From Spirochaetota bacterium (lineage in GTDB: Bacteria; Spirochaetota; JAGLSM01; JAKPMW01): a DNA stretch of 64,000 nt. A model generated the notes under the pieces. It was not told the DNA's origin. It worked only from the letters and a program-made list of their open reading frames with translations, and searched no databases. Below, piece by piece: positions 9,301-64,000 of this stretch (positions are counted from its first letter, which is position 1; every line of letters starts with the position of its first letter). The stretch spans positions 7,175 to 71,174 of the forward strand of contig JAITCI010000032.1 in NCBI GenBank assembly GCA_031283155.1, written 5' to 3'. Both the position numbers and the translations under genes were made by a program.

Positions 9301-10143
9301 CTAATAGGCTGGTGCCGGAGTGAGATCTATTCCTTTTTCCTCCGCATATTTTTCCGCCCTTTTCTTGCAGGTCAGACAAAGCGAAGTAAGATTGACCGCC
9401 GCAGCGTCTTCTACAGTGCCGCTGCTTATTACACCGCCGGCGTCTCTGCTCATATTCACATGAGAACAATCTTCGTAATAATGGAATTTACCGCCAGCCG
9501 GCGTCCAGTATACGGTATTCGAATTCACCAACTGCTCAACCTGTTGAGAATACTGCTCGGCGGAGAGCGGGTTGAAATCGATACCAAAAATGCCCGCGAT
9601 AACCAGCGCCGCGCCGGCAACCACGCCCAATAATGCCTTTTGCTTCTCATCGAGATCCTTATTGGTCAGGATGAGGATGAGCAGGGGCAGGAACGCGATA
9701 ACGGCGACGATAACCCCAAGCTGGGTTTGCAGGAAAAATTTAACCTTGTCGCGCTCGGAAGCCGGGTCGAGATGATTTGCCTTTTTCCAGAGCAGGGAAC
9801 CGATCACCACAAGAACCAGATCGATCACAATCAGCGCGATCAGCCAGGTCATAAAGGGGATGGGCGGATCAAACGAGGTTTCACCTTTGACGAGCAGGAC
9901 GATAGCCGCCGCTTCCGCCGCAATCGCAAGCACCCACAGGATGATCGCGATAACACGGAAATTTTTAGCGCTCGCCTTCGCTTCCGGCGGGGGGGTAAAG
10001 CGCACACGCGAAACTTCCGGCGCGCTTGTTTGCACAGGTCTTCTTGCAGCAGCGACCGGGGCAGCCTTTGGAGCCGCTTTTTTGGTTGAGGACCCGCGCG
10101 CTGAGGATCCGCGTGCTGACGTAGTTTTTTTTGTTGTTGCCAT
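9301..10143 (-). CDS. hypothetical membrane protein with a basic AKP-rich N-terminal tail, 4 predicted TM helices and a C-terminal Cys/His zinc-ribbon-like module
   Basis: Start ATG 10143 (MATTKKTTSARGSS...KKAAPKAAPVAAARRP) with RBS aagagg. Hydrophobic segments follow. The C-terminus reads FHYYEDCSHVN...CLTCKKR. Confidence 0.5.
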   Translation of the reverse strand: MATTKKTTSARGSSARGSSTKKAAPKAAPVAAARRPVQTSAPEVSRVRFTPPPEAKASAKNFRVIAIILWVLAIAAEAAAIVLLVKGETSFDPPIPFMTWLIALIVIDLVLVVIGSLLWKKANHLDPASERDKVKFFLQTQLGVIVAVIAFLPLLILILTNKDLDEKQKALLGVVAGAALVIAGIFGIDFNPLSAEQYSQQVEQLVNSNTVYWTPAGGKFHYYEDCSHVNMSRDAGGVISSGTVEDAAAVNLTSLCLTCKKRAEKYAEEKGIDLTPAPAY

Positions 10144-10208: not shown

Positions 10209-11693
10209 TCAATGGCTTTTTTCGCTCTCCGTAAAATCCAGGATGGAAGATATTCGTCCGGGCTGCGCCCAGCTCATGGTTCCCGCCATTTTGGACGAAA
10301 GCAGATATTGCTCAATGGCGGGATCGGATAATTGCGCAAGCAGCGATTCGGCCTTGCTTTCCTCCGCGCACGGAATGAATGCCTGCAGGGACTGGTTCGC
10401 CTGCCATACGCCCGCGAATAACTGCGGGCGGAAAGAGGCTTTCCCATAAGCCTCCCACACAATTTTGTACTTTTGGAAATTATATTTACCCACACCCAGG
10501 AGCGCCCACCAGATACCGCGCTGTATATACGCCTGTATCAAAGTGCCTTTCCGATTGATCAGAATATCCCTGAATTGGCGCAGGTAGTCCCGCAACAAGG
10601 GGGCGTTATCGAGTTCCGATGGGGTAAGCGGTTTGCCTGTTTTGTCGTTATAGGGCAACAAAACCCATTTCGCCGGAAGCGCGCTCTGTTTGAAATTGTT
10701 TTTGGTTATCAGGGGGTATACATATTTTTTGGGCAGGAGATATATATCATTTACCCTGCACCGGAGCGTATCCATTTCTTCATACTTGTCAAACACGAAC
10801 ACCCCTATCGCCCCGCAGGGATTTATGCCCTGGCGGGGCTTTGCGTCGGGGGAGACCTGTATCTTAGGGATATTTATGGAACCGTCGGTGTCTGATGAAA
10901 TAAGCAGCGATCCGCCAATTTCGCGCGCCGCGCCTCTGTGTTCCGTCCATGTATCTTTCCCGAAGAGATACCAGGGGATGGATTCCGATTGTGTACTTTG
11001 CTTCTGAAAACACGCAAGCCCATAGCGGGTCGAGATATGCGCAAACACCTCCAGATTTTCAAAGTCGTACACGGAGCGCAAAGAATAGACGGAATCATAT
11101 ATTTTGAATTGCCGGAACCGCGCGTGCGCGTCATTCAGGAATAAAGACAACGGCAAAAAAAATACTGCCTTGCCGCCCGGAACCAGATTGCGGTATATGC
11201 ACTTCTGGATCACAAGCGCGGCGATATCCATTCTGGAACCGCCCAGAAGCAGCGCCTGCGGATTATCCACCAAATCATATTCGATAAACCATTTTTTTGC
11301 GGGTTCCCTGTACTCCGCCGGTAAATCCACAAAATTGCACCAGGGCGGATTGCCGAATACAACGTCAAAGCTCTCCCCTAAGGCCATGATGTCGCTGTTT
11401 ATAAAATTCGTCCGCATATCCGCGTCATACGCATGGGCGAATTTTTCGAGCGCGCGGGTATACGCGGCGGTGTTCAGCTCCGCCCCAAAAAGCCGCTGGA
11501 TCGGCAAGTTACCGGGCGCATAGCCCCGCTCGAACCCATACTGTACCAGCGCGGCGAGCAAATGCCCCTCGCCCATCGTGGGGTCAAAAATGGTTTTTCC
11601 GGCAATCCAGTCGTCAAAAAGATCATAGCGCTCTATGGCAAATTTTGCCCACTTGTACGGCGTGTATACAGCGCCTATGGACAGATTATTCAC
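10209..11693 (-). CDS. gamma-class N6-adenine DNA methyltransferase (Eco57I/TaqI-like N6_Mtase plus C-terminal specificity domain), orphan
   Basis: Motif I FDPTMGEGHLL and motif IV VVFGNPPW. The GTG start at 11693 overlaps the pgm stop (GTGA). No restriction endonuclease gene is adjacent. Confidence 0.7.
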   Translation of the reverse strand: MNNLSIGAVYTPYKWAKFAIERYDLFDDWIAGKTIFDPTMGEGHLLAALVQYGFERGYAPGNLPIQRLFGAELNTAAYTRALEKFAHAYDADMRTNFINSDIMALGESFDVVFGNPPWCNFVDLPAEYREPAKKWFIEYDLVDNPQALLLGGSRMDIAALVIQKCIYRNLVPGGKAVFFLPLSLFLNDAHARFRQFKIYDSVYSLRSVYDFENLEVFAHISTRYGLACFQKQSTQSESIPWYLFGKDTWTEHRGAAREIGGSLLISSDTDGSINIPKIQVSPDAKPRQGINPCGAIGVFVFDKYEEMDTLRCRVNDIYLLPKKYVYPLITKNNFKQSALPAKWVLLPYNDKTGKPLTPSELDNAPLLRDYLRQFRDILINRKGTLIQAYIQRGIWWALLGVGKYNFQKYKIVWEAYGKASFRPQLFAGVWQANQSLQAFIPCAEESKAESLLAQLSDPAIEQYLLSSKMAGTMSWAQPGRISSILDFTESEKSH

Positions 11694-13363
11694 CCTGTAT
11701 ACGGATCGGGCTGGTTCGCGTCGGTGTACTTTTTGCTCTTGCCCGAAAATCCCGCGCCGGCAAGAAAAGCGTCGAAAGCGTCTTTCATCGGCTGCGTAAC
11801 GGGCGATTTTGGCCGCGCAAACTGGGTATCGTATTTTGTGCAGTACACGCGCAGGGTATAGCCGCCGGAGCCCGTTCCCGAGAAGCGCGCCTTAATGGTA
11901 TTGCCCTCGCTGAATTGCAGAAAAAAGGCGCAGGCGGTATCGGCGGCCTGTTTTGTTTTGGGGTGGATATAGTCCCAGGAACCGGCCTTTTCGAGTTTGA
12001 GCGTGCTGTATGTGCCGCCCACATATTTCGCCGCGTCCTTCAGGATGGAGGTAAGCAGCGTTTTTTCGTTCTCGTCGCTTCCGGAAACCTCGCCGCGCGT
12101 AAAGAAAACGCGGCCAAATTCCTTCCAGACGCCCTCCATGAGTTCCTGCACGGTTTTGCCTGTTTCCAGTAGAATTTTGAGCAAAAAGGCGGTCGCGAAG
12201 ATCCCGTCCTTCTCGCGGATGTAGGGATTGCCGACGCCGTTGGATTCCTCAACGCCCCAGTTCCCGAGTTCGGCGATCCATTTGAAGCCCGTGGGCGTCT
12301 CGACCGCATGTACCGTATGCTTAGGGAATTTTTTTTCGAGATAGCCTTGCATGAGGTCGATGGTTCCCGCCGTAACCGTGGAACGCCCGAAATAGATCTC
12401 ATGCGGAAAGAGTTTTTCCACGCCTATCAATTCGGCGTATTTCGAGAACAGCGCAAACTCGTCCGCCGACTCAATAAAAAAGCCCTTGCCACCGTCAAGG
12501 CGGCGATCCACATCGGAATCCCATGCCGCCACAATATCGTATTTTCCCGTGGCGTTCAGCTTAATCAATTCGCCTATATAATCGAAATCGGGCTCGGGGT
12601 GCAGCGGGTGTCCGTGCGCGTCGAGTCCGCCGAGATCCTCGCGCGGCTCCTCGCGCAGAATGGTTGCGTCCAAGCCCAAACGATTGATGAAAACCTCATG
12701 CGCAAACGGTCCGGCGGCGCCGTGCATTGCGTCAAAGGCGGCAGCAAACCCGGGGCGCAGGGCGAGCGCATCACGCATCGCGCCGAAATGCAGAACCTCG
12801 TCCAGAAGGTCGGCGTATAGCTTAACGCAATCGATACATTCAATCTGCCCCGCTTCGAGGGCGCTCTCAAAAGCCACAAAGGAATAGCTCTTTACCTCGT
12901 TTTGCATAGCGTGGACGCGCGCAACCGTTTCCTCAAGCGCCGGAGCGCCCGAAGACATATTCAGCTTAATGCCCACGTCGGTAAAGGGGTTATGGCTCGC
13001 GGTCAGGATGATCCCGCCCGCCGCCTTACACTCCCGAATGGTATGCGACATCGCGGGCGTGGACGCGAGGCTGTCCTTCGCGATGATCACGCGAAACCCA
13101 TTTCCCACCATAATTTCGGCGATGCGGCGTACCCTGTCGGCGTTCCCCTTGCGCGGATCGCCGCCGATGATCAGGGTTTTATTGTTTTCCGCGACCTCTT
13201 TCATATTGGTCAGCTCGACAAAATAATCCGCCACGCCCTGGGCGAACTGTTCCAGAAAGAGCGGCCGGTTATAGTCCTCCTGCACAAGACGCAGCCCCGA
13301 GGTTCCCATTTTACCGATAGACCAGGGTTTTTCGATACGCGCGGTTTCAATCTTCAGCGGCAT
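11690..13363 (-). CDS. pgm: phosphoglucomutase / alpha-D-phosphohexomutase
   Basis: Active-site loop TASHNPFTDVGIKL, a Mg-binding region and a phosphate-binding region. Start ATG 13363 (MPLKIETARIEKPW) with RBS aggaggg. The ORF-track extension to 13549 lacks an RBS and runs into repeats. Confidence 0.8.
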   Translation of the reverse strand: MPLKIETARIEKPWSIGKMGTSGLRLVQEDYNRPLFLEQFAQGVADYFVELTNMKEVAENNKTLIIGGDPRKGNADRVRRIAEIMVGNGFRVIIAKDSLASTPAMSHTIRECKAAGGIILTASHNPFTDVGIKLNMSSGAPALEETVARVHAMQNEVKSYSFVAFESALEAGQIECIDCVKLYADLLDEVLHFGAMRDALALRPGFAAAFDAMHGAAGPFAHEVFINRLGLDATILREEPREDLGGLDAHGHPLHPEPDFDYIGELIKLNATGKYDIVAAWDSDVDRRLDGGKGFFIESADEFALFSKYAELIGVEKLFPHEIYFGRSTVTAGTIDLMQGYLEKKFPKHTVHAVETPTGFKWIAELGNWGVEESNGVGNPYIREKDGIFATAFLLKILLETGKTVQELMEGVWKEFGRVFFTRGEVSGSDENEKTLLTSILKDAAKYVGGTYSTLKLEKAGSWDYIHPKTKQAADTACAFFLQFSEGNTIKARFSGTGSGGYTLRVYCTKYDTQFARPKSPVTQPMKDAFDAFLAGAGFSGKSKKYTDANQPDPYTG

Positions 13364-13439
13364 GACGCCCTCCTGTTGGCCGCAAGGTGTCTGACGCAGC
13401 CTGCGCTTAGCATAAAGCAGGAACAAAGCCGCGGTCAAG

Positions 13440-13530
13440 TACAAGGACACGGGGGAAAGCCTTCCCCCGCGAGGCAGCCAGTGCTGCCTCTCCCCCTTCT
13501 TCGGGGGCTTCGCCCCCAAACCCCCAAAAA
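13440..13530. promoter_or_regulatory. GC-rich cluster of mutually exclusive hairpins (possible leader/attenuator) upstream of pgm
   Basis: gggggaaagccttccccc (13451..13468), gaggcagccagtgctgcctc (13471..13490), and ccccc-ttcttc-ggggg-cttcg-ccccc-aaa-ccccc (13492..13525), in which the G5 run can pair with either flanking C5 run. Confidence 0.3.
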
Positions 13531-13563
13531 CTACAAGACATTTGGCCACGAAAAGGCGCGGCT

Positions 13564-13744
13564 GTCATTGCGAACCTTGCGGAGCAAGGTGAAGCAATCC
13601 ACTTTTGCATAATTACAGCCTGGATTGCTTCGCTGCGCTCGCAATGACTGGGCGTAAACGATGACAGGGCATAAACGATGGCAGGAGGAAATCATCACCC
13701 CATCATTGCGAACCTTGCGGAGCAAGGTGAAGCAATCCACTTTT
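13564..13744. repeat. repeat family A complex: two direct copies (13564..13606, 13703..13744) and one inverted copy (13622..13648)
   Basis: gtcattgcgaaccttgcggagcaaggtgaagcaatccactttt occurs twice. ggattgcttcgctgcgctcgcaatgac is the reverse complement of the copy at 1771. Confidence 0.65.
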
Positions 13745-13823
13745 AAAATTTTTGCCTTTTTCGCGGCTCCGCGCGCATACTCAAATTCTTAAATAGGGTG
13801 TATACTATGGGTATTATGTCCTT

Positions 13824-13874
13824 GTTGCCCTTGCGCTTCTCCCTCCGGTCGCAACATCCTGTTGCGCAAGGGCA
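13824..13874 (+). promoter_or_regulatory. 12-bp inverted repeat (ttgcccttgcgc ... gcgcaagggcaa) enclosing palindrome CAACATCCTGTTG, in the 5' region of the phase-variable protease gene
   Basis: Perfect 12-bp arms with a 27-nt spacer containing caacatcctgttg (13851..13863). It lies 26 nt upstream of ATG 13901. Confidence 0.4.
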
Positions 13875-13900
13875 AAAACGTTCTGTTTTTGGAGGAAAGT

Positions 13901-15311
13901 ATGAAACACGTCCGGCGGATTGGTCTTTGTATTATGCTCCTGGTGATATGCTTTGGATGCAGCGACCTGTTGAGTCTTTTTGAGGGCGGCGATCCGGGCA
14001 GCGAAATCAAACCGGCAACAACATCCGCGCTGCTGCTCTATAATATCTCCGGCAGTACCAACGATACGGCGGGGCAGGCAATCGGAAATATACCGGCGAT
14101 CAACATTCCTGAACCGGACCGATCCATGCGCTCCGCAATGGAAAATGCGCCATCGCTCCTGAAGGATCTCCCCGGGCGAATGGGGGGGGGGGGGGGTAAC
14201 GTATGCCCGCGCGTTGTCCGCCGCTCCGCAGCAGCGCGCCCCGCTTGCAACGAACTATCCCTTTAAGGCCTTCAACGCGGATGAGACTATTGTCACCATA
14301 AATGCCACCTTGCGCGGCGAAAGCGAGCGGTGTTATGTGTATGTTGAAAACGGGCAGGAGGGGACAACCAATTGGGAGGCGATAGCTGATTTTTTTACAG
14401 CCAGAGTATGGGAAGAAGACACCAGACTTTTCGGCGAACCGTATATAGTGACGAACACGAGTCCCAAGATCGTTATTCTCTATTACAGAATGAAGAATGA
14501 CAAGGGCAGCGAAGAGAAAAATATCCTGGGTTTCTTTTATTCCAGGGATATGCAAACAAGCGGCGCCATTCCAGGTAACGAATATTCCAATGGAATGAAC
14601 ATATTTTATATGAACCTCTCTTTTCCCTACGGACCAAACCATTCGGAGATGCAGCGCACCCTCTTTCATGAATTCCAGCACATGATCAATTACAGCAGGA
14701 GAACGCTTGTAAACGGATATCCCCGGATGTGCACCTGGATGGACGAGGGTCTTGCGGAATCCGTGGAGCATTATGGATTGGGTACATACGGGGATTCCCG
14801 CGTCAAATCGATGAACGCGGATCGAAGCGGGCGGCTCGCGAATGGCTGTTCGCTTACCGTTTGGACCCGCGACGCAGACGATATTAACTACGGGCTGGCC
14901 TATACCTTCCTGCAGTATCTGCGCCTGCAATCCACCTCCGCCGGGTGGAATATCCTGCGGACCATTTTTGATCATCCAAGCGGCGATACTCCCGCCCTGG
15001 TTGCCGCGATGAGCGCGACGGGCGGCAACAGTAATCTCAACACATTTGAAAAGATGGTTTATGGCTACCACACCGCACGCTTTTTGAATGCCGACAGCGG
15101 ACTCTATAGTTTTGGAAACGAGCGGAATAATTTTAAGTTCACACCGCGCTCGCCATCGAAAACAATAAATTCGTCAACCAAAATCATTGCCGGCGGCGCG
15201 TTATATCTGCCCACGGATGACCGCGCGGCATTGGCGGCCTACAGCACAGATGGATCGGGACGCCCCAGCGGCGCGGGCGCCAGTATCCGCGCCTATCCGC
15301 ATCTTCCATGA
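13901..15311 (+). pseudogene. HExxH zinc-metalloprotease lipoprotein interrupted by a frameshift at a G15 homopolymer (putative phase-variable gene, OFF phase as sequenced)
   Basis: ATG 13901 with RBS ggagga. The signal and lipobox read MKHVRRIGLCIMLLVICFGCSD. The frame-2 ORF ends at 14266. The frame-0 ORF 14214..15311 carries LFHEFQHMINY...WMDEGLAE (HExxH plus downstream Glu, gluzincin-like). Removing one G from the 14182..14196 tract fuses the two frames into a protein of about 470 aa. Confidence 0.6.
14182..14196. repeat. poly-G homopolymeric tract (15 G) inside a coding sequence; candidate slipped-strand phase-variation switch
   Basis: tgggggggggggggggta counted directly. Confidence 0.8.
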
Positions 15312-15323
15312 TTGGAGCGCATA

Positions 15324-15779
15324 ATGAAAAAATCTCTCCTCAAAATCGCCATTGCGCTGGGACTCGCCTGCCTTACCGGTCTTGCCCTGCTTGCCTGCAA
15401 CTCCTCCGCAAAAGCGACCGATCAGGAACGCGATACCGCGCGCGCGCGGAAAACGGCGGAAAAAGCGGGTATTGATACTGAAAAAAATTCCGCCGTGCTC
15501 ATAACCAGGCGGGATCTGCGAGATAACACGCGGGTAACGATCATCGGGGTGTTGCGCCAGGTGGGTACCGCGCGTTTTCCGGAGGTTGTTATTACCCCGC
15601 CCGCCGGTTTTGATGTGGATCTCAACATCGATAAAAAGAGCATGGACAAATACGCAGAACTCTATAACAATTATGTCACCGTTACGGGGCTTTTGAAGAT
15701 TGAACTCGTCCGCTACGGCGATATCGAGCGCGAGCGCTACTCCATGACGCTGGACGCGCCGCCCAAGCTCGTTTTATAG
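15324..15779 (+). CDS. small lipoprotein of unknown function, co-transcribed downstream of the metalloprotease gene
   Basis: MKKSLLKIAIALGLACLTGLALLACNSS (signal plus lipobox). The ATG at 15324 lies 13 nt after the upstream stop. Confidence 0.55.
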   Translation: MKKSLLKIAIALGLACLTGLALLACNSSAKATDQERDTARARKTAEKAGIDTEKNSAVLITRRDLRDNTRVTIIGVLRQVGTARFPEVVITPPAGFDVDLNIDKKSMDKYAELYNNYVTVTGLLKIELVRYGDIERERYSMTLDAPPKLVL

Positions 15780-15790
15780 CGCCGGTTATA

Positions 15791-16582
15791 ATGGCTGCAG
15801 ATCATCCATCGGAATTGACGAAGAGCGGATCCGCCGACGCGATCCGGGCGGTGCGCTATGACTCCGATAACTATGCCTGGATACTTGCGGCGGAATCGGG
15901 GAACGTCATTGTTATCGACCCTGGCAGCGTGCGCGCCATAGAGGCGGCACTCGCGAACGCCCATAAAAATCCCATCGCCTTCCTGTGTACCCACAGCGAC
16001 AGTGACCACATTATGGGACTGGCGGCTCTGGCGGGCAAGTATCCTCAGGCGAGTATCGCGGTGCATCATGGATTCGCGGCGGCGCTCCCGCCCGGCGCGC
16101 GCGTTCAGCATTGCCATGACAATGAGGTGCTGCAATTCGGCGCGATGCGCATTACCTGTATGGAGACCCCCGGGCACAGCGGAGACTCGATGTGCTTTCT
16201 GACCGATGATGGCGCGTTATTTACGGGGGATACGCTTTTTGCCGCAGGCTGCGGGCGCGTGCGCGGGAATGGCTACGATGTGATGCTGCGGTCGCTTTGC
16301 CGCATCGCCGCGCTGCCGCCCGATACGCGCGTCTATCCCGGGCACGACTACCTTGAAGAGAATCTCCGGTTCACGGCAACAATGCCGCATGACGCAAAGC
16401 GCATAGGCTCGCGCCGAGCCGCGCTTGCCGAGGGAAGGGAACCCCCATCAACGCTCGCGCTCGAACTCGCCACGAACCCTTTCTTGCGCGCGATGGATCC
16501 GGAATTCCGGAAAAGCCTGCGGGCGCAAACAGCGCCGGAAGCGTTCACGCTGCTGCGTCGGCGGAAAAACAGTTTTATTTAA
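15791..16582 (+). CDS. MBL-fold hydrolase (hydroxyacylglutathione-hydrolase/glyoxalase-II-like)
   Basis: CTHSDSDHIMG metal motif (HxDxDH variant), a downstream His (HDYL) and a typical size of 263 aa. Confidence 0.65.
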   Translation: MAADHPSELTKSGSADAIRAVRYDSDNYAWILAAESGNVIVIDPGSVRAIEAALANAHKNPIAFLCTHSDSDHIMGLAALAGKYPQASIAVHHGFAAALPPGARVQHCHDNEVLQFGAMRITCMETPGHSGDSMCFLTDDGALFTGDTLFAAGCGRVRGNGYDVMLRSLCRIAALPPDTRVYPGHDYLEENLRFTATMPHDAKRIGSRRAALAEGREPPSTLALELATNPFLRAMDPEFRKSLRAQTAPEAFTLLRRRKNSFI

Positions 16583-16967
16583 CGATGAGATACAGCAGGG
16601 TAGCGGGATCCTGATGCTTGCCGCTGCGCTGCACCGACTGAAAAACCACTATCGATTTATTGTTCTTGTCCGTCATAACGTCCGTGAATCTGTATTCGTA
16701 GCTTTCGCCGGCGCTCTCGCACGAGAGTACCCAGCTTGCCCCGTCATGCCGCCAGCCCTGAATGATGGTTTCCATTTCGCCGCTTTTTAAGCTCTTGATG
16801 GCTTCCACAAAGCCCGCAATGGTGACATTTTTTTTGGTGAGTTCGGTTTCATCGAACTGAATCACTGCGGCAAGAAAATCCTCGGCCGGATCGGTATATT
16901 TGCTGCACGCAACAATGAGCAGCCCCAGCATGATCATTATGGTTATCATGGTAAAAATTTTCTGCAT
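16575..16967 (-). CDS. small lipoprotein, hypothetical
   Basis: The likely start is ATG 16967 (MQKIFTMITIMIMLGLLIVACSKY) with RBS gggagg. The longer ORF-track N-terminus has no RBS. Confidence 0.5.
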   Translation of the reverse strand: MQKIFTMITIMIMLGLLIVACSKYTDPAEDFLAAVIQFDETELTKKNVTIAGFVEAIKSLKSGEMETIIQGWRHDGASWVLSCESAGESYEYRFTDVMTDKNNKSIVVFQSVQRSGKHQDPATLLYLIVK

Positions 16968-17124
16968 ATAAACCTCCCTTATATTTTTGTCTATTCGCCC
17001 GTCGGCGGACAGTTTTTCAAATCGTTCTTCTAAGATACCCCGATTTTTCGCGTTTCTATCGCTATTTTCATAGATTTTTATAAAAGTTTTTGCGAAACCC
17101 CGGCGTTTCAGGAGGAGAACCCGC

Positions 17125-18282
17125 GTGCGCATCCTGCTCATCCGTTTAAGCTCGCTCGGCGATATCGTTCTCACAACCCCTGTATTCGCGTTTATCAAAG
17201 AAGCCGTGCCCGACGCCGAACTCGATTTTCTTTGTTATACACAATATAGCGCAATTATGGCGCAATATCCGGAAATCCATCGGGTTCTTTGCTTTCCTAA
17301 GCAGGAAATGACGCGCGCGCTCCGCCGGATGCGCCTGATTCGCTTTTGGCGGCTTGCGAAGAGCTTGCGATGCGATCTCGCCGCCCGCCGTTACGATCAT
17401 GTCATTGACCTCCACAATGTGACCGACAGCGCTTTGGCCGCGCTTATGTGTCCAAAAGCGATCCGTACCGGCAACAGACGGCAGCTCCTGACTGTTTTTT
17501 TCGCGCACCGGCTCCGCCTGGAGGATCGCAACGAACGCGCCGAGATGCACGCCTCGTTGATCGCGATGCGCACCGTGCTGGAGAGCGGCGCTCTGCCCGC
17601 CGCCGCTGCATTGCCCATCCTACCCAAAAGCGCTGTATTTTTCGACGAAAACGCGCGCGCGGAGGCGGAGCGGTTTATACAGGTTCAATCTCTTGCCGGA
17701 AAAAAACTGGTGGGGATATATCCAGCCGCCTCGCGCGATTATAAACGCTGGCCTGCGGAGAATTTCGCGCGTCTCGCCGGAAAAATCGTGGACACCTGGG
17801 GGTACGCCATCGTGCTTCTGGGCGCTGCCTCCGACCGCGCACTCATGGAAAAAATCGCAGCCGAAATATATACGCAATGCGCCGACGCCGCAATCGCGGA
17901 TTCCGCGGGAGAGCCGATTTCCGAAAATGTAGTTATCGCCTGCGGGCTGGATCTTCCTGTGGTCTGCGCGCTGCTCGCGCGTCTTGATTTTTGTATCGGC
18001 GCGGACTCCGGGCTCATGCACATAGCCGCCGCGCTTAATGTCCCGCAGGTTGCGCTCTTCGGACATTCCTCATTGCTCAAATTTTATCCGCTTTCAGACA
18101 AGGCGCGCGTGGTGCGGCACGATCTGCCCTGCTCTCCATGCACTCCGCAATGCGCCCGGAAATGCGCGCACCGGATTTGCATCGAAGGCATTACCGTCAC
18201 GGAGGTTTGGCGGGAGGCGGTGCAGCTTATCGCGGAGTATTATCCAGAGCTTGTGTGTTCCTGTGGCCGATCAGCCGAATAA
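17125..18282 (+). CDS. glycosyltransferase family 9 (ADP-heptose:LPS heptosyltransferase-like)
   Basis: The N-terminus MRILLIRLSSLGDIVLTTPVF is the GT9 hallmark. GTG start with RBS aggagg. Confidence 0.7.
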   Translation: MRILLIRLSSLGDIVLTTPVFAFIKEAVPDAELDFLCYTQYSAIMAQYPEIHRVLCFPKQEMTRALRRMRLIRFWRLAKSLRCDLAARRYDHVIDLHNVTDSALAALMCPKAIRTGNRRQLLTVFFAHRLRLEDRNERAEMHASLIAMRTVLESGALPAAAALPILPKSAVFFDENARAEAERFIQVQSLAGKKLVGIYPAASRDYKRWPAENFARLAGKIVDTWGYAIVLLGAASDRALMEKIAAEIYTQCADAAIADSAGEPISENVVIACGLDLPVVCALLARLDFCIGADSGLMHIAAALNVPQVALFGHSSLLKFYPLSDKARVVRHDLPCSPCTPQCARKCAHRICIEGITVTEVWREAVQLIAEYYPELVCSCGRSAE

Positions 18283-18401
18283 AGCCGGGCAAAATACAAA
18301 TTTATATATGCAAACCAGCGGCGTCCATGCCGCAGCGCTGGACAGAACATCCTGTTCTAGCTTGCGGCCGATCAGCCGAATAAAGCCGGGCAAAATACAA
18401 A
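18264..18401. repeat. 100-bp tandem duplication (1.4 copies) spanning the 3' end of the GT9 gene and containing a family-B palindrome
   Basis: g[tc]ggccgatcagccgaataaagccgggcaaaatacaaa occurs at 18264..18300 and 18364..18401. cagaacatcctgttctag lies at 18343..18360 between them. Confidence 0.7.
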
Positions 18402-18451
18402 CCCCCGGGGTTTATAGTACATTTATGTATCCGTAACAGACTATTTCACAA

Positions 18452-19717
18452 ATGGAGCAGGGTGCCATAATGGATATACAACTCTTTTTGAACATCGCAA
18501 TACTTGTACTGCTGATTTTTACTCTCATGTTCCTGCTGTTAAAGAGAAAACCGGATACCGAGTCTTTGCGCGACAGTATTGTCAACCAGATTGACAAAGG
18601 CACGACGGAACAATTTAAACGCTTTAGCGCGAATCAGGAAAGCGTTAATAAAATTTTACAGGAAAACCGTGTCGAGACAAACGATCAGCTCAGAAAGTTT
18701 TCGGCACAGCTGGATACACGCCTGGACTCGATTCAGCGTACCAATACCGAGAACCTTGAAAAGGTCAATGCTACGCTCGAGAATAAAATGAAAGCGCTCC
18801 AGGAGAGCAACGAAAAAAGACTTGAACAGATGCAGGGCGTGGTCGATGAAAAGCTCCAAAAAACTCTTGAAACCCGTCTTACGCAGTCATTTGAGTTAGT
18901 GGGTAAACAGCTTGATAGTGTGCAGCAGGGTCTGGGCGAAATGAAGAACCTTGCCGCCGACGCCAAAAGCCTTAAAAACGCTCTTACGAATGTTAAAGAG
19001 CGCGGCACCTATGGCGAGGTACGTCTTGAAAAACTCTTGTCGGATATTCTTATTCCGGCCCAATATGAAAAAAATGCCGAGATACACAATAATAAGCGGG
19101 TGGAGTTTGCCATTAAATTGCCCGGCAATGGCGATGATCCGCTCCTGTTGCCTGTTGACTCCAAATTTCCTGTGGAAGACTATAACCGCTTGCTTGACGC
19201 GGAGGATAAATCCGCGATAGACGAGGCGCGCAAATCCCTCGCCCAAAAAATAAAGGTTTTTGCAAAGGATATTCACGATAAATATATTCATCCCCCAAAG
19301 ACCACGGATTTTGCCCTGATGTTTTTGCCGACCGAGGGGTTATATGCCGAAGTTGTGCAAAATGTATCTCTTTTTGAAGAGCTTCGCGAGAAATACAAGG
19401 TTACGGTGGTTGGAGCAATCACTCTTTCGGCCTTTTTGAGTTCACTTCAGATAGGCTTTAAGACGCTTGCCATTGAGCAGCGCTCGCGGGAGGTTTGGGA
19501 TACATTGCGGGAAGTGAAAAAACAGTTTGGCGAATTTGAAACGGTTATTACACAGGCGCACAAGCAGCTGCAGACAGTAGATAAAACCATAGAAGGAATT
19601 GTTGGGAAGCGTACAAGAGCGATAAACAAAGCGCTGCGCAATGTTGAAGAACTTGGCGGGGAAACCCGGAAACTCCTTGCCGAAGGGGATGATCCGGATG
19701 CTGACGAAGACGCATAA
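18452..19717 (+). CDS. rmuC: DNA recombination protein RmuC
   Basis: An N-terminal TM helix, a long coiled-coil, and a C-terminal RmuC nuclease-like region (FALMFLPTEGLYAEV). The start may be ATG 18470. Confidence 0.75.
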   Translation: MEQGAIMDIQLFLNIAILVLLIFTLMFLLLKRKPDTESLRDSIVNQIDKGTTEQFKRFSANQESVNKILQENRVETNDQLRKFSAQLDTRLDSIQRTNTENLEKVNATLENKMKALQESNEKRLEQMQGVVDEKLQKTLETRLTQSFELVGKQLDSVQQGLGEMKNLAADAKSLKNALTNVKERGTYGEVRLEKLLSDILIPAQYEKNAEIHNNKRVEFAIKLPGNGDDPLLLPVDSKFPVEDYNRLLDAEDKSAIDEARKSLAQKIKVFAKDIHDKYIHPPKTTDFALMFLPTEGLYAEVVQNVSLFEELREKYKVTVVGAITLSAFLSSLQIGFKTLAIEQRSREVWDTLREVKKQFGEFETVITQAHKQLQTVDKTIEGIVGKRTRAINKALRNVEELGGETRKLLAEGDDPDADEDA

Positions 19718-32874: not shown

Positions 32875-33040
32875 TTTGAGGATCCTCTTTCGGTGCGCGC
32901 ACAACCTGATATTTACGGTATACCGGAGCGGCAGTAAAAGTCAAGCGCGCGGAACTATGAAGGGACTTTTTGACATTTTTTCAATTATATGCTATCACTT
33001 AAAGAACTCTATAAATCATTAAAATATTATGGAGGAATCT

Positions 33041-34741
33041 ATGCGGTTCTTATCGGGGTTATTGGGGATACTTCTTGTCGGGTTCGTGCCTTTGTTCGCG
33101 ATTGAGGTCGCGGAACAGGAGTTGCTGCAAAGCCAACCCGTTGATTTTGTCAATTACCGCGGGCAATTCACGCGAATTGTTTCGCCCGAGGAGTTCCGGC
33201 AAACCGGTCTCGGCATAGCGCGCGGCGCGACCGGTACGCGCTTTACAAGCGCAAACAGGTACACAATCCTGCGCGCGATTGATCCCAGGGAAGAAAAGGG
33301 GTTCGATGCGGACATATTTATGCTTGAGCCCGCCAGCGATATTGTGGATATCCGCGGGGTGCGGGCACTGCTTGCGGGATATATCGAGGGGCAGTACGGC
33401 TATAACGCCAGAAACGCAAGCACCCTTTCGCTTTTTGCCACCTATTATAACGCCATCTACCGTGGGCGCATGGATTATTTCCGAACCCAGTACAAAAATG
33501 TGGTAACAAGCCAGCTTGTTCCCGCGCGCGCGGGGATCGCGCTGGATTACCGCGCCTGGCCGGGGCGGACGCAGATTGTCGTTCCGTTGGGCGTTTTTGC
33601 GGGAAATACGCCGGAGATTGATCTGAACCAGTTCACGGGGCAGGACGTGATCGATACGCTCCGGCAAAAGCCGGACATGGGCGTTGAGGAGCGCAAGGAT
33701 CTCCTGGACATCAAACAGGAAGACCTGAACAAAAAGCAGGACGATCTCGACAAAAAAAAGGAAGCCCTGGAAGAAGACAAAAAAAAGCTTGAGGATACCA
33801 CCCAGGCCGTCACCATAAAGCAGGAAGAGCTTGAAAAAAAGCAGGAGGATCTGAAAAACGAAAAGGATCCGGTAAAACAGGAACAGATCCGCGAAGAATT
33901 AAAGAAGGACGAAAAGGGTCTGGAGCAGCTTAAGGAAGAGCTTAAGAAGGAAGAGAGCGCAGTCAAGGAAAAAGAGACTGTGATCGAAAAGGCCGAAGAG
34001 ACCCTCGAGAAAAAGAAAGAAGAAGTTAAAAAAGAAGAAGAGCAATTAAAGAAAGACGAGACGAAAGTCCTTGAAGACAAGCTCCCGCAGCCCGTCAAGG
34101 AAGAGTTGAAAAAGAAGGAAGACGAGCTCGAGAAGAAAACCGAAGCGCTTGAGAAACAAAAGACCGAGCTGGATACCAAAGCCGAAGAGCTGAAGCAAAT
34201 GGAGGAAGAGCTCAAAAAAGGCGAGCTGGATCGCAATATCTATGACGGCGGGCTGTATTATCTGAAAGTCATTGAGCCGCTCGACGACGGGCATTATAAA
34301 AATGAAATGGTACTCATCAACCCCATCTCGCGCAAGGTGGTACTCTCCTCGCCCTATAAAAATATATGCGGGCATCGTTACGATATTTTCAGCGAAGGCG
34401 CTGTGGTTATAGGTTATGACGGGAAGCACTCCAGCGGGCATTTTCTCGTCCTGCTTGACCCCAAAACCCTTGAGCTGACCGCGAAAGGCAAGGATCATGT
34501 GTACTGGAAGAGTTTTATAGAAGTGAAGCAGGATTCCATCTATACGATCATTCAGGATAACGGGTACTATTTGGGCAAGTTTGACAACAAGCTCTCGCCG
34601 GTGGCTCGTTCAAAAGAGAAGATTGACAGGGATAGTTTTATTTCTTTCTTTGGGCAATACGTATATGTAAATTCTCCAGACAGGACAATTTTTGTTTTTG
34701 ATGTCACGGATCTGAAATTGATAGATACAATCAAACCGTAA
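33041..34741 (+). CDS. exported protein with central K/E-rich coiled-coil region (possibly P83/100-antigen-like)
   Basis: Signal peptide MRFLSGLLGILLVGFVPLFA, roughly 170 aa of EELEKKQEDLK-type low-complexity coiled coil, and globular flanks. RBS ggagga. Confidence 0.5.
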   Translation: MRFLSGLLGILLVGFVPLFAIEVAEQELLQSQPVDFVNYRGQFTRIVSPEEFRQTGLGIARGATGTRFTSANRYTILRAIDPREEKGFDADIFMLEPASDIVDIRGVRALLAGYIEGQYGYNARNASTLSLFATYYNAIYRGRMDYFRTQYKNVVTSQLVPARAGIALDYRAWPGRTQIVVPLGVFAGNTPEIDLNQFTGQDVIDTLRQKPDMGVEERKDLLDIKQEDLNKKQDDLDKKKEALEEDKKKLEDTTQAVTIKQEELEKKQEDLKNEKDPVKQEQIREELKKDEKGLEQLKEELKKEESAVKEKETVIEKAEETLEKKKEEVKKEEEQLKKDETKVLEDKLPQPVKEELKKKEDELEKKTEALEKQKTELDTKAEELKQMEEELKKGELDRNIYDGGLYYLKVIEPLDDGHYKNEMVLINPISRKVVLSSPYKNICGHRYDIFSEGAVVIGYDGKHSSGHFLVLLDPKTLELTAKGKDHVYWKSFIEVKQDSIYTIIQDNGYYLGKFDNKLSPVARSKEKIDRDSFISFFGQYVYVNSPDRTIFVFDVTDLKLIDTIKP

Positions 34742-34784
34742 GTTTGTAATTCTGTTTGAGATACTTTTCCCTGAGGACGTGCGT

Positions 34785-36497
34785 ATGGCTGAAAGCGGAA
34801 AACAAAAAAATCGCACTGCGCGGCGGTCGGATTCCGAAATTATCGCAAATCTCAAAAAGCGTATTGAGGAATTGGAACAGATTACCGAAATGTTCGATCA
34901 AACCAGCGAACTTTCGCGTCTGGAGCGCTTGCATGCCGAGCGTTTGATTCAGGCGCACGAAGAATTACGGAATCTTACGGAAAAAGAGCGCCGCGAGGCG
35001 GACGCCATCATTGAAGCGCAGCAGCGCGTACAGGAACTCTCCGCCAAAGAGCGTCTGGATGCGGATCGTCTGGTTGCCGCGCATGAAGAGGTGGGGCGTC
35101 TTGCGCAGCAGGAACGCAAGGACGCCGAAAGCGTTATAAAAGCGCATGAGAGGGTGGGGGAGCTTTCCGTTCAGGAGCGTCTGGACGCCGAGCGTCTTCT
35201 GGCCGCGCATGAAGAGGTGGAGCGTCTTGCACAGCAGGAACGCAAGGACGCCGAAAGCGTTATCAGCGCGCAGGAGAGGGTGCGTAATCTCTCTGAAGAT
35301 GAGCTGCGCCGGGCGGAAAATTTCCTGGCGGCGAAAGAGAGAATTGAGCAGCTTGCGGCGGTTGAGATCAAGCGGCGCGACACGGTTTTGTCGGCAATTC
35401 TGTCCATGAATTCCCGGATGCATTTCGCCCAGCTTGTTGAGGATCTCTTTACCCACATACTGAACGACATTATGATCCTCTTTGGCGCTCGTCGTGGATT
35501 TGTGGCGCGCTCTGCCGGCAATACCATGCGCATTGCCGTTAAAAATGGCTATCCCCAGAGCGAAGTGCCTGAAGCAGCCGCCACGCTCGCCAAAGTCCTT
35601 GCCGGCGAAGAAGTTCCCGGGATCTTTGCCCGCATTGTGAGCGAGGAACTGGCCAGCGGGCTTGTCTATATCGAGCGTTTACCCGGCAATGGAAAGCTCG
35701 AAACGCTCGACAGCGGTTTTTTGGAGGTTATCGCCTCGCAGCTTTCGCTTGGATTCGGCGGGATTCTTTTGCGTGAAAGATATATTCGCCAGAATTTCGA
35801 GCTGCGGAAATTGGCTGTTCTGAAAGGTAATTTTATAGGGCATCTCTCGACGGATTTACAGAAGCCCATGGAAAAAATCATCGGTCTTCTCGAAAAAAAG
35901 ACGGAAAAAGATACAAAAAAAGCGCAGGAAGACATGATTCTTCTGAAAAAGGGACTGGATAAAATCATCTCCATCTTCTCGCTGCAGCAGGAAGTTGACG
36001 AGATGTACACCCATACCATCATGATTGATGATCTCATTCAGAAGATTGTCGCCTCGTATCAGGACGAAATAAAAAAACGCAATGTAACGATAGAATACAA
36101 TTATCCGGAGAGGATATATTCATTCAGCGGCAATCTGGATACAATGAACACCATTGTTGACGAAATTATCTGCAACAGCATTGTTTATAACAGAATAGGC
36201 GGCAAAGTGCTTATAAGCATCATACAGGACGATCGCCAGTGCAAAGTCGTAGTCAGGGACACCGGCGTCGGCGTCAGCAAAGAAAGACTCCCCAAGGTTT
36301 TTGAACGTTTCTACCGCGCGCCCAGTTCAAGCGAGCTGCATGACCGTGGTGCAGGGCTTGGTCTCTATATCGTAAAGGAATTTATTGAGGCGTATGGCGG
36401 TTCGATTACGTTCACGAGCGAAGAGGGCAAAGGATCCGAGATTGCTCTCATTTTTCCCTTGTGGCATATAGGCGGGAGCAGTACAACTTTTTCCTAA
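34785..36497 (+). CDS. cytoplasmic sensor histidine kinase (coiled-coil repeats, GAF-like region, HisKA, HATPase_c)
   Basis: H-box region and N/G1/G2 boxes (DEIICNSIVYN, RDTGVGV, GAGLGLYIVKE). No adjacent response regulator. Confidence 0.7.
   Translation: MAESGKQKNRTARRSDSEIIANLKKRIEELEQITEMFDQTSELSRLERLHAERLIQAHEELRNLTEKERREADAIIEAQQRVQELSAKERLDADRLVAAHEEVGRLAQQERKDAESVIKAHERVGELSVQERLDAERLLAAHEEVERLAQQERKDAESVISAQERVRNLSEDELRRAENFLAAKERIEQLAAVEIKRRDTVLSAILSMNSRMHFAQLVEDLFTHILNDIMILFGARRGFVARSAGNTMRIAVKNGYPQSEVPEAAATLAKVLAGEEVPGIFARIVSEELASGLVYIERLPGNGKLETLDSGFLEVIASQLSLGFGGILLRERYIRQNFELRKLAVLKGNFIGHLSTDLQKPMEKIIGLLEKKTEKDTKKAQEDMILLKKGLDKIISIFSLQQEVDEMYTHTIMIDDLIQKIVASYQDEIKKRNVTIEYNYPERIYSFSGNLDTMNTIVDEIICNSIVYNRIGGKVLISIIQDDRQCKVVVRDTGVGVSKERLPKVFERFYRAPSSSELHDRGAGLGLYIVKEFIEAYGGSITFTSEEGKGSEIALIFPLWHIGGSSTTFS
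35049..35300 (+). repeat. 126-bp (42-aa) in-frame tandem repeat, 2 full copies, within the histidine kinase N-terminal region
   Basis: ERLDADRLVAAHEEVGRLAQQERKDAESVIKAHERVGELSVQ is repeated with a few substitutions. The DNA units start at 35049 and 35175. Confidence 0.7.
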
Positions 36498-39079: not shown

Positions 39080-39859
39080 ATGAAAAAAAACTTCATTCTC
39101 TTGTTGATTGCGCTTGCCGCGCTTCCTGTTTTTGCCGAGACGCAGGATATTCCAATGCTCTTCTATGGCGAGGCCTCCTGGTATGGGGAGCAGTTCCATG
39201 GCAAACAGACGGCGAGCGGTGAAATATACGATATGAATTTGCTCAGCGCGGCGCATAAATCGCTCCCCTTTGGGACGCGCATTCGGGTAACAAATCTTGA
39301 AAACAATAAAGAAGTGATTGTGCGCGTCAATGACAGAGGACCGTCTGTTACGGATCGTGTTTTGGATCTCTCGCTTGCGGCGGCAAAATTGCTTGATTTT
39401 GCCGAAAAGGGAACCGCGAAGATAGAGGCTCGCGTTATCGAAATTGACGGAGATGGCACAGCGCAGGTTTCGGATAATTTTACTGTGGATAACCAGCGAA
39501 GCGCTGTTCAGGATACCGCCGAAACCGCCGAAAGCGTATCGCGCTCTGGAAGTCCGGTTCGCGTTATTCGCCCGGAAGAGGTGTATACGCCCGAAAAGGA
39601 ACCGGACAAACCTAATTTCCCCTTGTCTGCCGATGGGCGTTATGTTATACAGGCGGGCGCTTTTTTAAGTCTCGATAATGCCGAGGGTCTTTTGCGGCGA
39701 TACCAGGCTATGGGACTGCCCGTATATCTTCGCCAGCTTTCGCGCGATCATTTGCATCGTGTCTGGATTGGTCCCTTTGCCGCGCGAGCGGATGCGGAAG
39801 CGCAGTTGAAAGGTGTTCGGAGGATTTCCGAACAAGCCTATATCTGTAATAAAGAGTAA
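39080..39859 (+). CDS. rlpA: septal ring lytic transglycosylase RlpA family protein with C-terminal SPOR domain
   Basis: Signal peptide. DPBB block GEASWYGEQFHGKQTASGEIYD...RVNDRGP. C-terminal SPOR-like YVIQAGAFLSLDNAEGL...LPVYL. Confidence 0.75.
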   Translation: MKKNFILLLIALAALPVFAETQDIPMLFYGEASWYGEQFHGKQTASGEIYDMNLLSAAHKSLPFGTRIRVTNLENNKEVIVRVNDRGPSVTDRVLDLSLAAAKLLDFAEKGTAKIEARVIEIDGDGTAQVSDNFTVDNQRSAVQDTAETAESVSRSGSPVRVIRPEEVYTPEKEPDKPNFPLSADGRYVIQAGAFLSLDNAEGLLRRYQAMGLPVYLRQLSRDHLHRVWIGPFAARADAEAQLKGVRRISEQAYICNKE

Positions 39860-39868
39860 ACACAGGGA

Positions 39869-40798
39869 ATGAAAACGTTTTTCCGCGAAAGTTTTGAACC
39901 TTTTCTTGGTGAATTGACAGGCGGAAGCCGCTGGCTTCATGCCGCTTTCTTTGGGCTGGCGATCCTTTTTTTGTGTTATAACTATTTTGTCAAAGAACCT
40001 TTTTTGCGCAGCAATGGTCATGGGATTCCGGCTCTGCTCTCCGGAGAAAAAAAAATTCAGGATTTGCGGCAGGAAATCAGGAATCTCGAAGAAGCCAGCG
40101 AAACGAATGTGTTTCTGCCCGGTCCGGAGCGCCAGGCAAGCCGTGACAGCCTGGCGGCGGCGCGTATCCGGCTTGAGGAGGCGGCGGAAGGCGCACCAGA
40201 TCGCACAGCCGCGCTGCATTATCTGCGGTATATTGGCTGGTTCGCGGGTACCTTTGTTTTTCTGTTTGTGCTGCCGGTGTTTTTCATTGCGCTGCATCCG
40301 CGCTTGCGCCTGCGGGATTTTGGACTTGGGTTGGGTGACTGGAATTTTGCAGGCAAGATAGCGGTCATATTTTTTGCGGTTATGGCAATTTTCGTTGTTT
40401 GTATCGTGCTTTTTGAGGTCAGGAGTTTTCTGTCTTATTATCCGCTCTATGCCGAGAAATCGGTTACTGGATCGCAGCCCGATTTTCTTTTCTGGTTTGT
40501 GGTTCTGGAATTTTGTTTTTTGCTGTATTTTATTGGTTGGGAGTTTTTTTTTCGTTCTCTTATCCTTTTTCCGTTGGAAAAGTATCTTGGAGGCGCGGCC
40601 GCAATCATCGGGCTTTTGCCATTTGCGCTTACGCATATTGGTAAGCCGATTGCGGAGGTTTTTGGATCCGTGCTTGCCGCCTGGTTTCTGTCCATTTTGG
40701 TTCTTCGCGCGCGATCATTCTGGATATGTCCCCTTATCCATTTTGCGGTTTCATTTACAATGAATCTTGCTGCGGCATTCTCGAGGCAACTGTTTTGA
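39869..40798 (+). CDS. CPBP-family intramembrane glutamic metalloprotease (CAAX protease/Abi-like)
   Basis: Polytopic membrane protein with EFFFRSL (EExxxR) and FALTH (FxxxH) motifs. Confidence 0.65.
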   Translation: MKTFFRESFEPFLGELTGGSRWLHAAFFGLAILFLCYNYFVKEPFLRSNGHGIPALLSGEKKIQDLRQEIRNLEEASETNVFLPGPERQASRDSLAAARIRLEEAAEGAPDRTAALHYLRYIGWFAGTFVFLFVLPVFFIALHPRLRLRDFGLGLGDWNFAGKIAVIFFAVMAIFVVCIVLFEVRSFLSYYPLYAEKSVTGSQPDFLFWFVVLEFCFLLYFIGWEFFFRSLILFPLEKYLGGAAAIIGLLPFALTHIGKPIAEVFGSVLAAWFLSILVLRARSFWICPLIHFAVSFTMNLAAAFSRQLF

Positions 40799-63575: not shown

Positions 63576-64000
63576 ATGCCGCTGCGTGAACCATATAAAC
63601 CGGGTAAAAAAATCAGCCCGGTAAAACGCTTTCTGCGCATAGTTTCATTCGCCTATATATGCTTTGTTATCATACGGCTTTTCTTTTTTGAGAGCTACAG
63701 CATCTCCGGCAGCGAGATGCTCCCCGGCACAAAGCCTGACGACCTTGTTCTTGCCAATCGCTTCTGGAACGGAATCCGCCTCCCGGTTTTTTCCAATATA
63801 AAAATCCTGGATTTCATTTCCGCAGCGCAGGGCGATCTTGTTTTTATAAAGCATCCCTGGTTTTCGCAAAGCGGGGCTGCGGAATTTTTTGACTTTCTGA
63901 CTCTGTCGCTTTTTGGTATCGCGAAAGATATGGAGGTGCGCCTGGTACGTGTGCTTGCGGTCGGGGGGGATCGCGTGCGTATCAGCGCCGACGGCAGGGT
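63576..64000 (+). CDS. lepB: signal peptidase I, 3' end beyond window
   Basis: Hand translation from ATG 63576 (RBS gggtaggggg) gives an N-terminal TM, then SISGSEMLPG (Ser box), RLVRV (Lys-box position) and GDRV (box E-like). The frame is open to the window end. Confidence 0.6.
   Translation, partial: MPLREPYKPGKKISPVKRFLRIVSFAYICFVIIRLFFFESYSISGSEMLPGTKPDDLVLANRFWNGIRLPVFSNIKILDFISAAQGDLVFIKHPWFSQSGAAEFFDFLTLSLFGIAKDMEVRLVRVLAVGGDRVRISADGR

Follow-up and report, generated by a model that had tools for sequence, protein, structure and literature searches.

Background

In the meningococcal (Neisseria meningitidis) proteases NalP and MspA, the ON or OFF state is set by the length of a poly-C tract inside the coding sequence, nalP tracts of 7, 10 or 13 being ON (PMC3723659). 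G/C tracts of at least 7-8 are an accepted predictor of phase variation, and 77% of poly-G/C tracts in Campylobacter lie inside open reading frames (ORFs) (PMC6321876); among the spirochaetes, poly-G tracts vary in length within Treponema pallidum isolates (PMC7864442). Here we analyse a run of 15 G's (G15) that splits a gene for a lipoprotein zinc metalloprotease in an uncultured spirochaete. The gene lies in a 64-kb stretch of DNA – the window – taken from a 79.6-kb contig of a metagenome-assembled genome (MAG), and its 3′ ORF is deposited at NCBI as MDR2733941.1 ('MAG: Spirochaetota bacterium'). The features of the gene and of its relatives lead us to favour, as the probable explanation, an intragenic homopolymer contingency locus: an on/off switch worked by slipped-strand mispairing.

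NalP and MspA are the nearest functional analogues, each being a surface or secreted protease set by a homopolymer in its own coding sequence. NalP, from a human commensal or pathogen, is an autotransporter of the serine-protease type whose gene carries poly-C, and both its length variation and its ON/OFF protein levels have been demonstrated experimentally; the gene described here, in contrast, specifies an M30-like zinc lipoprotein, carries poly-G, and is known from one consensus length. The poly-G tracts of T. pallidum (tprE/G/J, tprL, tp0126; PMC7864442) come from the same phylum, and a few of them lie inside ORFs (+56, +826). The characterised ones, however, act in promoters on transcription (through spacing, or from upstream of the transcription start), whereas the present tract lies 282 nt inside the ORF, ~375 nt downstream of a promoter-like box (GGTGTATACT), where it would act on the reading frame; promoter control of the T. 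pallidum type was therefore set aside. Nor does the organism appear to stand close to Treponema: the neighbouring phosphoglucomutase (PGM) has its nearest named relatives in environmental Spirochaetota MAGs, at 60-63% identity.

Campylobacter and Helicobacter are not known to have mismatch repair. Their phase-variable loci (PMC6321876, PMC2823697) resemble this one in having coding-strand poly-G early in the ORF, an ON state at one length in three, and tract-free homologs elsewhere. Since our tract is coding-strand poly-G within the first 20% of the gene, its layout is the usual one for intragenic contingency loci. It differs in length and in company: Campylobacter tracts are mostly of 9-10 G, with 13-15 rare (PMC6321876), and number dozens per genome, as against a single G15 in 64 kb.

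A protease gene whose reading frame depends on tract length

How many G's the tract holds decides the frame in which a conserved protease gene, otherwise intact, is read. The parts of the gene are these:

13891-13896, + strand: ribosome-binding site GGAGGA, read from the sequence; GGAGG before the ATG is kept in all orthologs.
13901, + strand: start codon ATG, opening ORF1.
13901..14266, + strand: ORF1, 121 amino acids (aa) in the G15 state, beginning MKHVRRIGLCIMLLVICFGC-SD, with Cys20 at 13958-13960.
13901..14181, + strand: 5′ part of the gene, with signal peptide, lipobox Cys20 and a conserved N-terminal segment up to LLKDLP.
14182..14196, + strand: G15 homopolymer tract, beginning 282 nt into a gene of 1410 nt (20%) and spanning codons 94-99.
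14197..14266, + strand: out-of-frame tail NVCPRVVRRSAAARPACNELSL and stop TAA (14264-14266) of the G15 state.
14214..15311, + strand: ORF2, 365 aa from a TTG, in a different frame that is open from 14163.
14197..15311, + strand: 3′ part of the gene, the catalytic domain, with HEFQH at 14667-14681, Glu282 at 14745-14747, Tyr330 at 14889-14891 and the stop at 15309-15311.

When the gene was rebuilt in silico with tracts of 12 to 18 G's, one length in three was ON. G14 and G17 gave fused products of 469 and 470 aa, G12, G15 and G18 gave products of 120-122 aa, and G13 and G16 ran at once into a TAA stop (98-99 aa). A first-pass annotation of this DNA had proposed that loss of one G or gain of two would join the ORFs into a protein of about 470 aa, which is what the rebuilt lengths give; its coordinates were likewise all borne out, and ORF1, the G15 tract, ORF2 with HEFQH and WMDEGLAE, the downstream lipoprotein gene and a 5′ inverted repeat are all present. 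The Glu of WMDEGLAE, a motif of ORF2, is the one at 14745-14747. In alignments the tail NVCPRVVRRSAAARPACNELSL has no counterpart among homologs. A separate start for ORF2 was considered and rejected: the sole candidate is the TTG, which lacks a Shine-Dalgarno sequence, and the product would be missing its signal peptide.

The tract stands alone in the window. G/C runs there reach 6 (six runs), 7 (two runs, both G7, at 9989-9995 and 63963-63969) and 15 (one run), none other exceeding 7 in the 64 kb; base composition predicts 2.4e-4 G/C runs of at least 15 per window, against the one observed. The longest run of the other bases is 9. At 15 G's the tract is well above the threshold of at least 7-8 G/C (PMC6321876), it is intragenic, and among lengths 12-18 G14 and G17 alone are in frame; the gene around it carries a single lesion, keeps its invariant residues and shows a ratio of nonsynonymous to synonymous rates (dN/dS) of 0.25, a sign of purifying selection that is insensitive to very recent decay.

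A Logan contig produced by another assembler (L088, from SRR14710906) is 100% identical to the window over 13710..18294 and also has G15. The G15 call thus does not hang on one assembler, though the MAG contig and the Logan contig were probably built from the same reads. As a control on assembly quality, syntenic proteins from two orthologous contigs (L001 and L083) were mapped onto the window: eight of eight neighbouring genes are single frames and the protease alone splits, its upstream tblastn high-scoring segment pairs with the orthologs ending at 14179. A poly-G read-end artefact or a chimeric join was rejected, both flanks being colinear with orthologs up to the tract and the two assemblers concordant. 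At this locus JGI and NCBI annotate the 365-aa fragment alone.

Intact orthologs and the origin of the tract

Evidence that the two ORFs derive from a single gene comes from homologs of 446-480 aa, to which the fused protein aligns over 100% of its length at 41-67% identity. The alignment runs unbroken through the tract, with LLKDLP just upstream (K88, D89, L90 and P91 show little or no variation in the ortholog alignment, A1) and an F.A.NAD...I.AT block just downstream. On the homolog contigs the gene order is also shared – PGM on the minus strand, the protease, a small protein of 141-167 aa and, usually, an MBL/HAGH hydrolase followed by a GT9 glycosyltransferase – and because this order is that of the window we take the homologs to be orthologs. 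L001, L083 and L084 have the MBL/HAGH gene where the window has it; L085 does not. All orthologs are intact. Judged from these alignments, both ORFs are parts of one gene and the fused frame is its ancestral form, as the first-pass annotation had supposed in treating them as one split gene.

At the aligned DNA site there is no G run in L001, and only GGGG nearby in L002; no G/C run of at least 7 lies inside the gene in six orthologous loci, and no intragenic tract was seen among 80 distant family loci. On this comparison the tract is a lineage-specific expansion. It sits in a linker whose length and sequence vary among homologs and whose residues 90-111 are predicted to be disordered, with a predicted local distance difference test (pLDDT) score below 50 in the AlphaFold (AF2) model. 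Because the linker is variable in length and predicted to be disordered, differing numbers of glycines should be tolerated there.

The family is sparsely represented in public data. A search of genome contigs with the fused protein returned no relatives, and the family profile found in metagenome contigs distant relatives only, at no more than 33% identity. In one of the distant family loci (L017) a G18 run at 40-57 lies 40 nt from the contig end in very GC-rich surroundings; it is unrelated to the protease gene there, and could be either genuine or a poly-G artefact from the ends of reads.

We looked for signs that the gene is decaying. The frameshift at the tract is the sole damage, there being no second lesion in 1.4 kb, and all family-invariant residues – HEFQH, E282 and Y330 included – are retained in the alignment. 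Compared with L001 and L002, the gene has a dN/dS of 0.25; the value for L001 against L002, both intact, is 0.27. Its dN to L083 and L084, taken as outgroups, is 0.41 and 0.45, within the 0.37-0.50 of intact orthologs. With no second lesion, the invariant residues kept and no acceleration in rate, long-standing pseudogenisation is excluded by the sequence comparisons.

A candidate switch and its rivals

Under the contingency-locus explanation, a tract of 14 or 17 G's codes for 4-5 glycines in the linker that joins the LLKDLP segment to the catalytic domain, and translation would yield the whole protein. With 15 G's, translation would continue into a 23-residue out-of-frame tail and stop, leaving a 121-aa lipoprotein stump devoid of the catalytic domain. 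By analogy with known homopolymer tracts, slipped-strand mispairing at replication would add or remove G's at high frequency; because 15 G's far exceed the length at which slippage becomes frequent (PMC6321876, PMC3723659, PMC7864442), the population would be expected to comprise a heritable, reversible mix of protease-ON and protease-OFF cells, with about one length in three ON. In OFF cells the product would be a stump of 98-122 aa and some 1 kb of untranslated mRNA would lie ahead of the partner gene, the small lipoprotein gene that follows. Since the premature stop would leave that stretch untranslated, polarity may lower partner expression in the OFF state. Phase variation had already been proposed in the first-pass annotation, and that proposal stands insofar as G15 in an undamaged ORF fits the published criteria (PMC6321876, PMC3723659); the accompanying statement that the gene is OFF as sequenced was drawn from one consensus length and does not stand as an observation. 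Its parallel with treponemes and other host-associated bacteria is a tentative one for this organism, whose sample and run identifiers matched no paper.

Several results weigh against a switch. Any-length pattern scans of two public contig collections (one of metagenomes, one of genomes) found no tract-length variants. The locus is recorded from one sample only, with G15 in both assemblies: exact-product look-ups of ORF2 (with L or M as the start residue) and of ORF1 gave no match, and a look-up via the downstream lipoprotein gave one other contig, identical to the window. No ON version of the protein occurs among 5.8 billion protein clusters. The 64-kb window has no second long G/C tract, so that a wider 'phasome' is not evident, and no relative in the family, close or distant, has an intragenic tract. 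Finally, at a dS of ~1 the selection test is blind to a recent permanent inactivation.

One concern is the length call itself. No type of site is harder to size than a 15-base homopolymer when reads are short or noisy, the source is a MAG, and the rest of the gene looks functional; the consensus could be off by one or two – a miscall, or one allele of a mixture – with the main allele in frame and the gene ON. The tract would then still be mutable, and it is the description 'OFF as sequenced' that would be wrong. Two assembly pipelines nonetheless both gave exactly G15, and with none of eight neighbours frameshifted and long open frames in the rest of the window the assembly is not generally prone to indels. 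Given that both assemblies probably go back to the same reads, a systematic read-level bias could have affected both, and an error of this kind, while unlikely, keeps some weight. A different concern is that the gene is a recently fixed pseudogene, produced by slippage in an existing G run at a time when the protease was not needed and the ON state was no longer selected. That the only known sample is out of frame and that both public annotations give the fragment alone is what such a history would leave, and the test for selection does not see recent events. Yet a dead gene sits poorly with 1.4 kb free of further lesions, with the retention of invariant and catalytic residues and with an unaccelerated rate. 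Moreover, a 15-G run in coding DNA of 53% GC is hard to explain without repeated slippage, and for as long as the run persists the lesion is readily reversible. We consider recent fixation quite improbable.

Long homopolymers are also known sites of transcriptional slippage, which raises the prospect of a constitutive, non-heritable trickle of full-length protease from the G15 template, through slippage by RNA polymerase or a +1 slip of the ribosome. Re-pairing on the homopolymer after a one-base slip would be perfect, and the shift required is +1, the alternative frame stopping at once. The well-documented cases of transcriptional slippage in bacteria, however, involve to our knowledge A/T runs, G:C hybrids slipping less; around the tract no stimulatory element is evident, and no ortholog has such a device. 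The chance that this accounts for the locus seems to us very small. We thus retain the contingency locus as the probable reading.

The mechanism in itself is textbook, and the gain is incremental. Should the tract vary, this would be the first candidate phase-variable protease of the M30 family, as far as our literature search showed, and a rare contingency locus in an uncultured spirochaete outside T. pallidum. A wider proposal, which we regard as doubtful, is that the tract heritably switches a surface module of two genes (the protease plus a cognate OB-fold lipoprotein, its possible inhibitor or anchor) unique to this clade, in an organism other than the classical host-adapted pathogens. 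If true, contingency-locus behaviour would extend to surface proteolysis in environmental or invertebrate-associated spirochaetes, and a potempin-like pairing of protease and partner would be found in a new protease family. Two outcomes bear on public annotation: the 365-aa 'hypothetical protein' MDR2733941.1 is corrected to the C-terminal three quarters of a lipoprotein metalloprotease, and a small group of lugdulysin-like lipoproteins, so far unannotated and always accompanied by the OB-fold partner, is defined as a clade.

A divergent relative of lugdulysin

Pfam and NCBIfam gave the protein no family above cutoff, the weak matches being to flagellinolysin, MXAN_6640 and DUF2268. The relationship became apparent when a profile built from the ortholog alignment was compared with PDB entries 7BB8/7BB9 (lugdulysin; entry title, Staphylococcus lugdunensis M30 zinc metallopeptidase), which it matched with E = 1.3e-48 over ~350 positions; the window protein alone reached E = 2.1e-19 with phmmer. 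The same two structures, 7bb9 and 7bb8, are the best Foldseek matches to the AlphaFold model (pLDDT 71 overall, 80-95 in the core), with E ~4e-20 and a template-modelling (TM) score, taken on the target, of 0.70-0.76; the next matches, M9 collagenases and M1 aminopeptidases, are well behind.

Like lugdulysin and hyicolysin (PMC3890501), the protein has HExxH, a downstream Glu in W(L/M)(N/D)E and a conserved Tyr (Y315 in lugdulysin, Y330 here). HEFQH (residues 256-260) aligns to lugdulysin HEYQH, with H256, E257 and H260 invariant in A1; WMDEGLAE, with invariant E282, aligns to WLNEALSM; and N-Y330, its Tyr also invariant, aligns to N-Y315, which is NF in the inactive E242Q/Y315F mutant of 7bb9. 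From these correspondences E282 is predicted to be the third zinc ligand and Y330 to have a catalytic role. The two proteins have one fold in common, and in both a variable segment precedes the catalytic domain. They differ in that identity is ~21-22% in the structural alignment, and in that lugdulysin is a secreted staphylococcal enzyme whereas the window protein is predicted to be lipid-anchored, forms a separate clade known only from uncultured spirochaete-like contigs, and has an OB-fold lipoprotein as its partner.

The Pfam model Peptidase_M30 (PF10460) does not hit the window protein and reaches four of 12 clade members weakly, the best at E = 2.7e-5; on account of these weak matches, we class the protein by sequence as a member of a divergent M30-like clade and not as a plain M30 member. 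The first-pass annotation had called its zinc site gluzincin-type, rightly so: M30 falls in the Glu-zincin subclan MA(E) (PMC3890501), and the lugdulysin profile match places the fused protein, in MEROPS terms, as an M30 relative.

That the product is a lipoprotein, which the first-pass annotation had also proposed, is supported at the level of the motif. In the lipobox (MKHVRRIGLCIMLLVICFG-C20) the Cys, which follows a hydrophobic stretch, is at least 90% conserved, and homologs have A, S or G at -1. The residues at -3 and -2 (C and F) are non-canonical. Spirochaetal lipoboxes often depart from the canon in this way.

Partner lipoprotein and downstream genes

Two genes follow the protease closely on the same strand:

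15324..15779, + strand: partner gene, encoding a lipoprotein of 151 aa whose C-terminal part is an OB-fold barrel, 12 nt past the protease stop.
15791..16582, + strand: MBL-fold hydroxyacylglutathione-hydrolase-like gene (Pfam Lactamase_B and HAGH_C), after an 11-nt gap.

Each of the five loci whose sequence extends past the protease has the partner gene (L001 4083-4556, L002 2935-3387, L083 4097-4549, L084 1572-2075 and L085 5416-5841), and its product, which has no family assignment, forms only six clusters in the whole protein database. The model (pLDDT 84) consists of an N-terminal helix and an OB-fold barrel, and the lipobox is LLAC. The hydroxyacylglutathione-hydrolase-like gene is probably in the same operon.

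A small OB-fold lipoprotein beside a co-oriented peptidase gene recalls the potempin/KLIKK-peptidase pairs of Tannerella forsythia (PMC9890683), although here the gene order is reversed and the similarity scores are not specific. OB potempins have a protruding inhibitory loop between beta4 and beta5 (PMC9890683), which is absent from the partner model, where a 2-residue turn is all that separates strands 117-131 and 134-143. By analogy with the potempins it is possible that the partner is a cognate inhibitor or an anchor.

Further downstream, between the GT9 gene and the next conserved gene, lies an RmuC-family gene (18437-19717; Pfam E = 3e-71) of low GC (0.48). L001 and L083 have no gene at this position, and the Logan contig stops a little short of it, at 18294; an insertion polymorphism or a repeat at the junction could be the cause.

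The 5′ region

Two features lie in the 5′ region of the gene:

13797..13806, + strand: promoter-like box GGTGTATACT (-10-like), 94 nt upstream of the ATG.
13822..13878, + strand: leader hairpin, with 15-nt arms (13822-13836 and 13864-13878), a 27-nt loop and an 11-bp perfect stem core.

All six orthologous loci have the box, in the variants GGTGTATACT, GGTGTATATT and GTAGTATACT, at a distance of 34-94 nt before the start codon; a simple sigma-70 scan did not call GGTGTATACT. Its conservation and position make it the likely -10 region, and since it lies upstream of the palindrome the latter would be inside the transcribed leader. The RNA fold of the hairpin is of -26.5 kcal/mol, modest against shuffles (z = -1.7). 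Leaders are 34-54 nt in L001, L083, L084, L085 and L087, all of which lack the hairpin, and 93-94 nt in the window and L002, each with a different strong hairpin.

The first-pass annotation had described the palindrome as operator-like. This did not survive comparison with the orthologs: the structure is downstream of the promoter-like box and within the leader, it is absent in most orthologs, the hairpin of L002 is unrelated to it, and repeats of its arms occur in the window at chance level. Together with the modest z of the fold, these points led us to reject an operator; the palindrome is best read, from its distribution, as an inserted palindromic element. Rfam gave nothing at the gathering threshold over the whole window, nor in a permissive pass over 13364-13910.

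The PGM ORF on the minus strand (11690-13549) is 619 aa from a GTG, 62 codons longer than its orthologs (556-557 aa), and its true start is most likely the ATG at 13363 (MPLKIETARI...). With PGM starting there, the protease is preceded by an intergenic region of 537 nt, whereas those of L001 and L083 measure 172-271 nt. Between the two divergent genes, at 13555-13750, is a composite repeat (fold z = -3.5 against shuffles) made up of two identical 42-nt direct copies (13565-13606 and 13703-13744), an incomplete copy between them in inverted orientation (13621-13652), able to pair with either, and a 17-nt tandem repeated 2.5 times (13644-13685). The orthologs, with their shorter intergenic regions, lack this repeat, and it has no Rfam match; the hairpin in the L002 leader also contains its motif TGCGAACYTTGCG, and the Logan contig breaks within the second 42-nt copy.

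Other observations in the window

In-frame tandem repeats occur at 33703-34060 and 35049-35333, inside the adjacent long ORFs 33023-34741 and 34725-36497. The units are of 21 nt, 18 nt and 126/63 nt, with 66-88% match, and the ORFs possibly encode repetitive, coiled-coil or surface proteins. The longest A/T runs of the window, A9 (40047-40055) and T9 (40544-40552), lie ~500 nt apart in its lowest-GC stretch (0.46), where long ORFs overlap on opposite strands (39665-40636 minus, 39869-40798 plus).

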